From positions 6,943-70,942 of the forward strand of contig JAJHRB010000001.1 of assembly GCA_020833025.1 (NCBI GenBank): a stretch of 64,000 nucleotides of DNA, read 5' to 3'. This document shows, piece after piece, positions 1 to 3,031 of the stretch. Numbering within the stretch: the first letter of the stretch is position 1; each line of letters starts with the position of its first letter. A program made the position numbers and the translations under genes. The notes under the pieces were generated by a model, which had not been told where the DNA came from, did not search any database, and saw only the letters and a list, made by a program, of their open reading frames with translations. This DNA is from Thermoproteaceae archaeon. GTDB taxonomy: Archaea > Thermoproteota > Thermoprotei > Thermoproteales > Thermoproteaceae.

Positions 1-62
1 TTTCTCACGACGCTAGACACGTCCTTGCAGATAACCGAGCCGCCAATCTTGATTACCATCAT
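1..62 (-). CDS. argB: [LysW]-aminoadipate/glutamate kinase (LysZ/ArgB), 5' part only, runs off the window
   Basis: Manual translation MMVIKIGGSVICKDVSSVVR has the amino-acid kinase KxGG motif; ATGA overlap with the argC stop. Confidence 0.8.
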   Translation of the reverse strand, partial: MMVIKIGGSVICKDVSSVVR

Positions 63-1123
63 AGCGGCGCCACAGGTATCTGACTGAGACCCTCGCCCTC
101 GGGAAAGCCCATCACTATGTTAAATGCTTGCACTGCCTGTCCCGCGGCGCCACGCACCAAGTTGTCAATTGCCGCGAATGTTATTACTCTGCTCGTGCGC
201 GGGTCGAGCTCGAATCCAACGTCCGCGACGTTTGTCCCCAGTACGTACTTGACGTTAGGGTAGTGCGACAGACCGAGCCTGTCCCTCACTACTCTAACGA
301 ACTTGGCGTTGCCGTAAAGCGCCCTGTAGTATTTCCACATGTCGACCTCCGAGGGCAGTTTATCGACGAAAACGTGGCCTGTCGTGAATATCCCGCGTAC
401 CAGGTCTACCGCGTGCGGCGTGAACGCAACTCTCACCTTCCTGCCTGCGAGCAAGCTGAGCTCTTGCTCTATCTCGGCGATATGGCGGTGGCGGGCGGGT
501 TCGTAGGGTCTCACGACGTACGTTCTGTAGCTGTGCAGGTCCACCACGGACCCCTCGGCGCCCGCCCCGCTTGAGCCTATCTTCGCGTCAATGACTGGCG
601 GCACGGCGCCTATCAGCCCGAACTTCGCCAGCGGCGCGAGCATCAGCACCGACGCCGTGGCCATGCAGCCGGGCACTGCAATGAGTCTTGCATTGACGAG
701 CTCGTCTCTGTGCAGCTCCGGCAGGCCGTACACGGCTCTCTCGAGGAGGTCCGGGTACGGGTGCGGGCCCGGCCACCCGTACCACTCCACGTACGCGTTC
801 GGGTCCTTCAGCCTGAAGTCGGCGCTGAGGTCCACCACCGTGATGCCTGACTCGTAGAGCTTGGGGGTCCACTTGACAGACTCGCCGTGTGGCAGCGCCA
901 GAAAGGCGGCGTCTGCCTTCAGCGCGGCGTCTAGCGAGGGCTCCACAAACCTCAGCTGGGTGAAGCCGCGCAAATTTGGGTGCACCCTGTAGACGTACTC
1001 GCCCTTAAACCTTCTCGACGTAGCGCACACTACCTCAACGCCGCTGTGCTGCAGTAATACCCTAAGCAGCTCGCCTCCCACGAATCCCGACGCTCCTATA
1101 ATGCAGACCTTGACGACCTTCAT
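59..1123 (-). CDS. argC: [LysW]-aminoadipyl/glutamyl-phosphate reductase (LysY/ArgC)
   Basis: GASGFVG Rossmann motif, PGCMAT catalytic Cys, GSSGAG, DNLVRGAAGQA. Confidence 0.93.
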   Translation of the reverse strand: MKVVKVCIIGASGFVGGELLRVLLQHSGVEVVCATSRRFKGEYVYRVHPNLRGFTQLRFVEPSLDAALKADAAFLALPHGESVKWTPKLYESGITVVDLSADFRLKDPNAYVEWYGWPGPHPYPDLLERAVYGLPELHRDELVNARLIAVPGCMATASVLMLAPLAKFGLIGAVPPVIDAKIGSSGAGAEGSVVDLHSYRTYVVRPYEPARHRHIAEIEQELSLLAGRKVRVAFTPHAVDLVRGIFTTGHVFVDKLPSEVDMWKYYRALYGNAKFVRVVRDRLGLSHYPNVKYVLGTNVADVGFELDPRTSRVITFAAIDNLVRGAAGQAVQAFNIVMGFPEGEGLSQIPVAPL

Positions 1124-1793
1124 ACTAGCCCTGCGATGAGTTCTGCCTCCTCTCTACTCTCAACCGGCGGCACGGGGTCGATATCTATTACACGCATATC
1201 GCCATTGTAATCCCCTAGCGTCACTCTCGCGTAGAGGAGGCCCAGGTGCGAGAGCGCGTCCGCGACGAGCCCCCTGGCGCTATTGATCGTTGCGAAGACC
1301 GACAGCATTCTGCTTGGTCTCGGCGCGATGACTGTCACTCTCGCGAGGGGATTGCGCATGTAAGCGCGATGCTCGAGCACGCTTTTCGCGCCCTCCATGC
1401 TTGTCACCGGACCGTCTAAGTTCAGCCTCCACGCAGTCAGCAACAGCCACGGCCCCCTCATATCGACCTTTTCGAGCGAGGCGTCTGCGCATACAACCGC
1501 ATACGGCGGGCCGAACTTCGGGAGCCAGCTCAGCCTGTTGACGGCCAGTAGAGATGCCACTGGCGGGTTTATGCTGCGCTTTGCCAGAAGCCCGTAAGCC
1601 GCTGCCACGTACGGGTTCCTGATCCTCACTACTGCCGTGCCCGGAATGCTTCTGACGGGCATCTCTGTCACGTTCAGCGTCACTGCCCTGAGGCCCCTCC
1701 GCGCCAGCGACTCAACTATGAGCCGGTCGGAAACAGTCGGGGTGTCTGTGATGATATATACTGCATCGTCGCCGCCCGTGGCCCCTGATTCAT
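1120..1793 (-). CDS. LysX/ArgX (RimK-like) ATP-grasp-related protein, short and divergent; the promoter-proximal AUG at 1793 joins the ORF only via a -1 shift at 1785-1782
   Basis: The frame is open upstream of the tracked GTG (1683) and reads VYIITDTPTVSDRLIVESLARRGLRAVTLNV, which resembles a LysX N-terminus; C-terminal VIDIDPVP resembles the ATP-grasp ExN strand; first gene before argC/argB. Confidence 0.55.
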
Positions 1794-1812: not shown

Positions 1813-1821
1813 CTTTATATA
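1813..1821 (-). promoter_or_regulatory. TATA box of the lysX-like/argC/argB unit
   Basis: TATATAAAG on the minus strand, about 19 nt before the AUG at 1793. Confidence 0.6.
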
Positions 1822-1877: not shown

Positions 1878-3031
1878 ATGGACGTGCCATCGGGGACGGC
1901 GCGCCGTACCTGAAATGTGTACTGTGCGGAGCTAGATACGAGCAGAACTACAGGCTGTACACGTGCCCCAGGTGCGGAGGCCTTCTTGAGGTGACCATCC
2001 CGCACAAATACTGGAGCCCGCGGGGCAGAGGCATCTGGCGGTATGCATCAATGCTGCCGCTAGGGAGCGGCATCTCGCTGGGAGAGGGCGGCACTCCGCT
2101 GGTTGAGTCGAGTCTGAGTAGTAACCTCTACATTAAGTTTGAAGGGACTAATCCCACCGGGAGCTTTAAGGATAGAGGAATGGCCCTTGGCGTTACAGTT
2201 GCGAGGGAGAGCAGGGCCGAGAAGGTGATAGTCGCGTCCACAGGAAACACTGCGGCGTCTGCCGCAGCGTATGCCGCGAGGGCTGGGCTGAAGTGCTACG
2301 TGCTGCTGCCCCGGGGCAACGTCGCGCGCGGCAAGCTCATACAGGCAGCACTTCACGGCGCTGAGATAATTATGATTAACGGCTTTTTCGACACTGCTCT
2401 CAGGTACGTGCTCGAGCACGGCACCAAGTACGCATATCCGCTGAACAGTTTCAATCCGTGGAGGCTGGAAGGCCAGAAGACAATTGCATTTGAGATATAC
2501 GAGGAGCTTGGATGTCCAGATTACGTAATAGTGCCCGTTGGAAATGCAGGCAACATCTCTGCAATATGGAAGGGGTTTAGAGAGCTGGGAGAGCTCGGTC
2601 TCTGCAGAAAGCTTCCTAGAATGGTAGGCGTGCAGGCAGAGGGCGCGGCGCCGCTTGCCGTGGCGTGGCAGAGAGGTCTCAAGAGCCCGCTATTTGTTGA
2701 CAAGCCCAAGACAATAGCAAGTGCAATTAGAATAGGCAGGCCGATTAACTGGCCCAAGGCAATGGCGGCAGTAGAGCAGTCAGGCGGCCTCTTCATCGCG
2801 GTTTCCGACAGCGAGATTGCCGAGGCTCAGAGGCTTCTGGCATCTAGAGACGGCATCGGGGCGGAGCCGGCGGGGGCTGCCTCCGTTGCAGCCGCGCTGA
2901 GGCTCAAGGTGAGCGGCACTGTAGTGGCCGTCGTCACGGGGCACGCACTCAAGGACCCCGACGTTATCGAAATAAGCGTCAGGGAGATAAAAGATTCAAG
3001 AGAGCTCCTCCTACTGCTGGAGGGAGCGTGA
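1878..3031 (+). CDS. thrC: Threonine synthase; the AUG at 1878 joins the ORF via a -1 shift at 1892-1895
   Basis: NPTGSFKDRG PLP-lysine motif, ASTGNT, VPVGNAGN; the Zn-ribbon CVLC..CPRC lies in frame upstream of the tracked GTG at 1991 with no in-frame ATG/GTG/TTG before it. Confidence 0.93.

Follow-up and report, generated by a model that had tools for sequence, protein, structure and literature searches.

We analysed a 64,000-nucleotide stretch of DNA (the window) from a Thermoproteaceae archaeon, taken from contig JAJHRB010000001.1 of GenBank assembly GCA_020833025.1, and describe here a short open reading frame (ORF) that precedes a gene we call lysX-prime on its minus strand. An original prediction, made from the letters alone, had proposed that this ORF is the leader of a lysX-like gene, that a -1 shift within a run of G residues joins the two reading frames, and that the proline codon following the run ties the LysW pathway to proline or ornithine. 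Positions refer to the window unless a contig is named, and the principal features of the locus are as follows.

1716..1793, minus strand: leader ORF in the 0 frame, 25 codons ending in TAG at 1716-1718, the predicted product when no slip occurs; translation MNQGPRAATMQYISSQTPRLFPTGS.
1791..1793, minus strand: start codon ATG of the leader, predicted to be leaderless; it sets the 0 frame, which is not that of the enzyme; conserved among relatives.
1782..1785, minus strand: candidate slip site G GGG (CA-G GGG), where re-pairing of tRNA-Gly one base back would be perfect.
1779..1781, minus strand: candidate sensor codon CCA (Pro), codon 5, in the 0-frame A site; after a slip the A site would hold GCC (Ala).
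1776..1778, minus strand: CGG (Arg) following CCA; GAG in relatives, and probably not part of the sensor.
1681..1683, minus strand: GTG, read from the sequence as the first canonical start in the enzyme frame and the usual choice of gene callers.
1120..1785, minus strand: main ORF lysX-prime, 221 amino acids, a predicted divergent ATP-grasp protein with a LysX/ArgX-like fold, ending in TGA at 1120-1122.
1814..1821, minus strand: TATA box TATATAAA, located -28 to -21 from the A of the ATG.

Both the 0-frame reading and the -1 slip at 1785-1782 that had been claimed were reproduced from the sequence. On the minus strand, 1716..1793 reads ATG AAT CAG GGG CCA CGG ... TAG in the 0 frame. The enzyme ORF occupies the -1 frame, which is open upstream as far as a TAA at 1839-1837 and whose first ATG, GTG or TTG is the GTG at 1683. 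Re-reading one base back in the G run 1785-1782 fuses the two frames, giving a protein that begins MNQG-ATGGDDAVYIITD.... The bare motif is not enriched, with ATGNNNCAGGGG observed once where 0.48 are expected and CAGGGG found 37 times where 37.6 are expected. It is unremarkable, and any weight must therefore come from its setting and from other genomes.

The assembly is metagenome-derived and consists of 126 contigs (1.56 Mb, 58% G+C, 94% complete), and a frame defect in a homopolymer of such an assembly might stem from faulty sequencing or assembly, mark a pseudogene, or come from DNA-level phase variation in the length of the G run. However, four independent metagenome assemblies of hot springs, from two studies and at 47-260x coverage, agree across 1600-2000 with no insertion or deletion. 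Strain-level single-nucleotide polymorphisms (SNPs) between 2020 and 2023 hot-spring metagenomes fall at positions 1725, 1755, 1773, and 1903, and none lies in 1779-1793; the TATA box, ATG, GGGG, and CCA of the lysX-prime leader are all free of them. (The SNP at 1903 falls in the 0-frame part of the leader of thrC, a divergent gene, past its sensor codon.) Complete genomes of relatives have the same layout, no genome has five G residues at the run, and the coding sequence is under purifying selection with the correct codon periodicity. The frame layout is real DNA, and we consider error, pseudogene, and phase variation, largely refuted by these sequence comparisons, to be scarcely credible.

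Orthologs of lysX-prime occur in all 17 other Pyrobaculum genomes, with 56-63% identity. All 18 Pyrobaculum genomes, several of which are complete, have the out-of-frame ATG without variation, as do all five genomes of a sister genus, which we take to be Thermoproteus. The consensus of the 17 other Pyrobaculum leaders is ATG GAT CTG GGG CCA GAG GGG AAA GTG GGG CGA, in which each of the three in-frame 'xxG GGG' units has its own next codon: CCA (Pro), AAA (Lys), and CGA (Arg), in that order. Across these relatives the ATG, the GGG codons, CCA, AAA, and CGA form invariant columns, with exceptions in two genomes: one carries GGA at site 1 and another has site 2 deleted, the remaining sites being intact in both. 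The codon before each GGG always has G as its third base, and its first two bases vary (CTG, CAG, GTG, TCG; GTG, CCG, ATG). Column identity is 0.96 in the leader versus 0.83 downstream, and the 0-frame stop is found at the same aligned position in most relatives. Judging from the alignment, nothing between the ATG and the enzyme is conserved apart from the G GGG run and the codon after it.

The codon after the run does not vary among orthologs in the way that would speak against a sensor, since all 18 Pyrobaculum genomes have CCA directly after the first GGGG and the five leaders of the sister genus all contain it. There the leader reads ATG .. .. xxG GGG AAA xxG GGG CCA (..) xxG GGG CGA, with the same codons in permuted order. 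A permuted codon order alters the enzyme-frame peptide, and selection therefore acts on the G run and on which codon comes next in the 0 frame, rather than on the protein. The genome under study has only the first (Pro) unit, with CGG GCG GCG ACG in place of the Lys and Arg units; by parsimony, this single-input leader is probably the derived form. The proposal that the amino acid sensed is Pro, not Lys, agrees with the leader of this genome, but in relatives it would describe just one of three sites, those for Pro, Lys, and Arg standing in tandem. A second possibility, that the CGG after CCA adds Arg as a sensed amino acid, did not hold. This codon is unconserved, being GAG in relatives, and lacks re-pairing geometry because a tRNA-Pro on CCA would be unable to re-pair at -1 on GCC; it was rejected as a sensor.

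Recoding would be superfluous if the enzyme were initiated at a non-canonical or downstream codon (ACG, ATC, or GTG 1683) and the ATG frame were no more than a brief upstream ORF, regulatory or incidental. Gene callers do choose GTG 1683 and comparable codons, and an in-frame GTG lies a few bases upstream of the ATG in P. islandicum and in one metagenome-assembled genome. Annotated orthologs range from 148 to 230 amino acids, and the callers therefore disagree on the start. However, the upstream in-frame starts are unconserved, and several fall in or beside the TATA box, ahead of the point at which the transcript begins. Initiation at GTG 1683 would, in turn, remove the β1-α1-β2 segment of the protein. 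The alignment with orthologs begins at residue 1 of the translated -1 frame, and in the 45 nucleotides past the leader conservation by codon position in the enzyme frame is 0.85, 0.94, and 0.71. In an AlphaFold (AF2) model of lysX-prime built from 21 orthologs, which has a predicted local distance difference test score (pLDDT) of 88, residues 9-38 form β1-α1-β2 with pLDDT >90. The 34 residues upstream of GTG 1683 are conserved, have main-frame codon periodicity, and lie within β1-α1-β2. Moreover, homologs from other genera of Thermoproteales, which lack the frameshift, have canonical starts that correspond to residue ~8 (GTG GCT AAA CTC CTC... and ATG AGG GTT GCG ATA GTC TAT GAC). Alignment and model together place the true N-terminus upstream of GTG 1683, a codon whose use as the start had been recognized from the outset as incompatible with a slip. 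Initiation without recoding also leaves the invariant units of G GGG plus codon unexplained and runs counter to the initiation at the 5' AUG that is expected for a leaderless mRNA. We regard it as very unlikely.

The position of the TATA box coincides with the AT-rich peak (-28..-21) of 580 ordinary ATG-started genes in the same genome, and in the DNA alignment a TTTATATAG box is kept in relatives. Based on this spacing, the mRNA appears to be leaderless, beginning at or beside ATG 1793. On leaderless mRNAs, translation initiates at the 5' AUG. For P. aerophilum, RNA-seq contigs from four runs start at 1495, 1501, 1511, and 1516 in the numbering of the P. aerophilum locus, where the orthologous ATG is 1493-1495; they begin at +3 to +24 relative to the A of the ATG (+1), and the promoter is covered by none of them.

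These contigs also bear on correction at the RNA level, in which polymerase stutter or editing would add one G in some transcripts and no ribosome would shift. One added G restores the frame exactly, and the run lies at +9..+12, near the start. Reiterative transcription near the transcript start is known in bacteria (pyrG, pyrBI), and homopolymer instability is reportedly a feature of P. aerophilum. The P. aerophilum contigs contain no inserted G, with two of the G runs crossed in four of four runs and the first in two, although such contigs hide minority forms. A run of four bases is also short for slippage, and correction of the RNA predicts no constraint on the next codon, yet those codons are invariant and matched to the pathway. 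We judge this explanation highly improbable.

Many relatives carry ATGTGGGGGG or GTGGGGG 5-15 nucleotides upstream of the ATG, between the TATA box and the leader ATG, an element not present in this genome. Together with the three GGGG runs of the leader, this upstream tract provides four G tracts in those relatives and thus potential G-quadruplex material. A role for a G-quadruplex was set aside given the single G run in this genome and in the other genes with leaders of this type.

We conducted a genome-wide census for leaders of the same design, defined by an ATG, an xxG GGG within 15 codons, a subsequent ORF of 100 codons or more in the -1 frame without an in-frame start, and a TATA box. 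The census gave 18 matches for GGGG with a -1 shift versus 1-7 for other combinations of run and direction. Duplicates and three matches that look non-coding (C24+13537, C65+23951, and C109+1015) were left out, which resulted in 13 loci. All 13 carry an amino-acid biosynthesis gene or an aminoacyl-tRNA synthetase gene, and at each the codon after GGGG fits the product, with functions assigned by NCBIfam.

Isopropylmalate synthase (leuA): codon after GGGG CTC, Leu.
Homocitrate synthase: codon after GGGG AAA, Lys.
carA: codon after GGGG CGA, Arg.
ileS: codon after GGGG ATC, Ile.
trpE: codon after GGGG TGG, Trp.
thrC: codon after GGGG ACG, Thr.
argG: codon after GGGG CGA, Arg.
Transketolase (tkt, aro operon): codons after GGGG TAC and TTC, Tyr and Phe.
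Citramalate synthase (cimA): codon after GGGG ATC, Ile.
TrpB-like enzyme (trpB2): codon after GGGG TGG, Trp.
ilvB: codon after GGGG CTC, Leu.
Pyridoxal-phosphate enzyme with no NCBIfam name: codon after GGGG TGT, Cys.
lysX-prime: codon after GGGG CCA, Pro.

The joint chance of the 12 codon-product matches in genes of known function, with lysX-prime excluded, is ~1e-13. The leader of ileS (C50, minus strand, 979 amino acids) is the shortest of all, ATG GGG ATC TGA, and its run includes the G of the ATG. It contains an Ile codon, and the scheme therefore extends to at least one aminoacyl-tRNA synthetase. A comparable leader, ATG GGG AAA, stands before canonical lysX (TIGR02144) in P. aerophilum and P. 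calidifontis, and the enzyme again occupies the -1 frame; there the slip run takes in the G of the start codon and the candidate sensor is a Lys codon.

Taken alone, the lysX-prime leader would also fit a constitutive -1 frameshift, in which the codon after GGGG sets a fixed efficiency by slow decoding and no supply is sensed. At known frameshift sites, such as those of Ty1 and prfB, a slowly decoded codon in the A site is a standard stimulator. CCA is the rarest Pro codon in this genome (10% of Pro codons, 5.5 per 1000), and all three sensor codons of the relatives are minor, with CCA, AAA, and CGA making up 10%, 18%, and 3% of their families. However, a fixed efficiency leaves unexplained the codon-product match at 12 other sites, the use of common codons (ACG, CTC, TAC, TTC) at some of them, and the fact that two genera have kept precisely Pro, Lys, and Arg, with their order permuted. 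On balance, we consider a constitutive shift unlikely.

Downstream of lysX-prime the operon continues past the end of the window, and a second leader faces it from the opposite strand.

1120..1123, minus strand: ATGA in which the stop of lysX-prime overlaps the start of lysY, read from the sequence and suggestive of translational coupling.
59..1123, minus strand: lysY/argC reductase (TIGR01850, 400 bits; Pfam semialdehyde dehydrogenase domains), its stop overlapping the lysZ start at 59-62.
1..62, minus strand: start of lysZ, [LysW]-aminoadipate/[LysW]-glutamate kinase (NF010662, 263 bits), which continues past the window to C61:6222.
C61:5981-6163, outside the window, minus strand: lysW, identified by tblastn with 62% identity to P. 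neutrophilum LysW; its product ends in EDFGE.
1878..1913, plus strand: divergent thrC leader, of the same design by sequence and census (ATG GAC GTG CCA TCG GGG ACG).

The gene order X'-Y-Z-W is the same here and in relatives, and lysW, whose presence in the genome had been put forward as a check, is found after lysZ. The promoters of thrC and lysX-prime share one intergenic region. The gap between lysZ and lysW is ~58 nucleotides and holds TTTTTAAATATA at leaderless spacing (C61:5981-6222). With its own TATA box, lysW therefore apparently has its own promoter and would escape gating by the lysX-prime leader.

The description of lysX-prime as 'lysX-like' is right at the level of predicted fold and synteny. 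Foldseek comparison of the AlphaFold model yields as top matches 3vpb (S. tokodaii ArgX), 5k2m (T. kodakarensis LysX/ArgX), and 3vpd (T. thermophilus LysX), with E values of 1e-11 to 1e-10, TMq of 0.73-0.81, and ~14% identity. At the level of the family the description fails: the gene is not canonical lysX. Its product has no match in Pfam, NCBIfam, or a PDB sequence search, and it is not among the genome's TIGR02144 (LysX_arch) matches at E<=0.01. Canonical LysX, scoring above the TIGR02144 cut-off, is found elsewhere in 17 of 18 Pyrobaculum genomes, as is an ArgX-like paralog coupled to carB. The named relatives of lysX-prime are all from Pyrobaculum (Pisl_0275, Pogu_1392, and a P. neutrophilum protein) and are all annotated 'hypothetical'. 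One Pyrobaculum genome (G002) has a second lysX-prime copy at C1:1204728-1205288, 8 kb from the first, which is N-terminally truncated, contains an internal TAG, and is probably a pseudogene.

The slip site is simple. GGG is cognate in both registers at 1785-1782, and a tRNA-Gly(CCC) gene is present in an ARAGORN set that is incomplete, few tRNAs being found in this intron-rich genome. The sequence does not conform to the tandem-slippage heptamer (X XXY YYZ); in CAG GGG CCA, only the P-site tRNA is able to re-pair. No stimulatory structure was found downstream, where the fold of 1694-1793 has a free energy of -29.5 kcal/mol versus a shuffle mean of -30.6 (z = +0.32).

The arrangement of the frames and its conservation, the constraint pattern, the leaderless spacing, and the codon-product rule are all properties of the sequence. 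Based on them, we favor as the probable function of this leader a -1 frameshift by the ribosome that responds to amino-acid supply and thereby gates the LysW trunk operon (lysX-prime, lysY, lysZ) from its first gene. The ribosome, not RNA polymerase, would shift, at a rate that follows Pro-tRNA, and lysY and lysZ would follow lysX-prime. Specifically, a ribosome would initiate at the 5' AUG and read AAU CAG, after which GGG would occupy the P site and the rare CCA the A site. When Pro-tRNA(UGG) is plentiful, CCA would be read and translation would proceed in the 0 frame to the TAG at 1716, yielding a 25-amino-acid peptide and no enzyme. When Pro-tRNA is scarce, the A site would stand empty, the peptidyl-tRNA-Gly could move back one base onto GGG, GCC (Ala) would be read, and lysX-prime would be made. 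The trans-frame N-terminal peptide expected in this lineage is MNQGATGGDDAVYIITDTPTVSDR; those expected in relatives are MDLGAR... (site 1), MDLGPEGESGAIY... (site 2), and MDLGPEGKVGAIY... (site 3). lysY and lysZ would be translated after lysX-prime by way of the ATGA overlaps, and this coupling would be lost when no slip occurs. The ancestral leader with three sites (CCA, AAA, CGA) could act as an OR gate that responds to a shortage of Pro, Lys, or Arg, of which the Pro input alone would operate here.

Why proline should be among the sensed amino acids may be explained by the gene content of the genus. None of the 18 Pyrobaculum genomes has a real match to proA (TIGR00407), with no match at all in 15 and weak 18-bit partial matches in three, and all 18 lack proB (TIGR01027), giving only weak matches to other kinases. 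Both models score in 14 of 14 control genomes. We infer that Pro is sensed because, in a genus without proA and proB, the ornithine/glutamate-semialdehyde skeleton would be available only via LysZ and LysY. Sixteen of the 18 genomes, the present one among them, carry a proC-like gene of full length. It is plausible, from this distribution of genes, that proline in the genus is drawn from the LysW trunk. The link between the LysW pathway and proline had been argued from Thermococcus; the host is Pyrobaculum, and it is the gene content of that genus that lends the link its support.

A look at proC in relatives provides a possible counterpart. The sequence ATG CGT CCC CCA is invariant at the head of proC in 11 of 11 relatives examined, at leaderless spacing and with the enzyme in the +1 frame, and the same CCA codon is used in these leaders and in that of lysX-prime. 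By its sequence, the proC leader resembles a site for a +1 slip on a run of C residues that would sense Pro, a mirror of the GGGG/-1 sites. The original prediction had also suggested a search for proC or ornithine aminotransferase/cyclodeaminase. The proC-like gene was found, but this assembly yielded no member of the ornithine cyclodeaminase family, of which 17 of 18 Pyrobaculum genomes have one, and a cyclodeaminase route was rejected for this genome. In addition to the cyclodeaminase-family gene, the 94%-complete assembly contains no canonical LysX and no ArgX-like gene after carB (C46:12427-15510), where in relatives the ArgX-like gene overlaps the carB stop; each of the three is present in 17 of 18 Pyrobaculum genomes. 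Their absence reflects either genome reduction or assembly gaps.

Several observations weigh against a Pro-responsive gate. The function of lysX-prime remains putative by its model, given that canonical LysX is also present in 17 of 18 genomes, and the Lys and Arg inputs are absent here from an operon that serves Lys and Arg. The proC-like match reaches 121 bits, below the NCBIfam equivalog cut-off of 197, and the organism's own proC (C45:~300-1012), which seems to start at a leaderless GTG, has no Pro leader. The slip site is a mere four-base run without downstream structure, and the sensor codons ACG, CTC, TAC, and TTC of the census are common, not rare. As for the RNA, the contigs were assembled from a relative, and in them minority variants are dropped and 5' ends are approximate. 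Finally, gating of lysY and lysZ would depend on their presumed coupling to lysX-prime.

A broader reading may be formulated as one claim. Pyrobaculum and Thermoproteus would use a translational 'codon code' over much of amino-acid biosynthesis, in which the first genes are locked out of frame behind a leaderless AUG and unlocked by a hungry-codon slip; the lysX-prime OR gate would have been rewired by adding, permuting, and deleting units; proline would be made via the LysW trunk; and proC would be gated by a +1 slip on CCC CCA. As a whole, it could equally well hold or fail.

How amino-acid synthesis is matched to supply is poorly understood in most archaea. If the proposed gate is correct, a whole clade uses a structure-free sensor, only a few codons long, that reads aminoacyl-tRNA supply at the ribosome and that would be suited to leaderless mRNAs at near-boiling temperatures. 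The lysX-prime leader would be the most informative member of the group, as its units appear to be modular (three inputs that can be permuted and lost) and it would tie proline synthesis to the LysW carrier-protein pathway. Genes of this type would be systematically mis-annotated, and both gene finders and metabolic reconstructions for Thermoproteales would need a recoding rule.

In a literature search we found no description of this frameshift system and no archaeal counterpart of leader-peptide control, attenuation, or the T-box. A 2021 review of archaeal recoding makes no mention of Pyrobaculum or Thermoproteus. The parts are known, namely hungry-codon slippage, autoregulatory frameshifts, and leader sensing, but their combination, the regulon-wide use, and the modular three-input form are apparently undescribed.

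Comparison with known systems helps to place the proposed gate. The enzyme itself resembles the LysX/ArgX ligases, which are its best structural matches, and holds the X position by lysY, lysZ, and lysW; unlike them, it is ~60 residues shorter, has ~14% identity, and is missed by TIGR02144, Pfam, and PDB sequence searches. In Sulfolobus solfataricus, the fucA1 alpha-L-fucosidase is produced by a -1 programmed frameshift (PMC1616953, PMC8037382), which a 2021 paper describes as the only -1 case firmly shown in Archaea (PMC8037382). As with fucA1, which is from an archaeon of the same group (Crenarchaeota), the full-length lysX-prime protein would require a -1 shift. However, the fucA1 site is a classical A-AAA-AAT heptamer in mid-gene with no tie to amino-acid supply.

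The proposed gate also shares features with autoregulatory frameshifts and with attenuation. In prfB (+1 at UGA, sensing release factor 2) and antizyme (+1, sensing polyamines), the full-length product needs a shift whose efficiency depends on how abundant the supplied product is, which gives negative feedback, as would be the case here. The shift proposed for lysX-prime, in contrast, is -1, its signal would be a sense codon and the matching aminoacyl-tRNA, it has neither a Shine-Dalgarno nor a pseudoknot stimulator, and in relatives there are three sites. Attenuation of the trpL, hisL, thrL, leuL, and ilvL type likewise uses a short leader ORF with regulating codons, and ilvL-type leaders are also multi-input. 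The lysX-prime leader differs in that it has no terminator or antiterminator structure (none beyond shuffles), in that it overlaps the enzyme ORF, and in that its output would be a switch of reading frame instead of a change in transcription.

The closest parallel is the leftward (-1) frameshifting at hungry codons in E. coli, where a single P-site tRNA slips while the A site is empty (Gallant and Lindsley 1992, cited in PMC8211752). In both, one peptidyl-tRNA would re-pair one base back on identical bases, and neither heptamer nor structure is needed. In E. coli, however, this slippage is an error under artificial starvation, whereas here it is proposed to be a conserved and obligatory step in making biosynthetic enzymes, on leaderless archaeal mRNAs, at a distance of 3-10 codons from the 5' end, and with a hungry codon that fits the product of the pathway.

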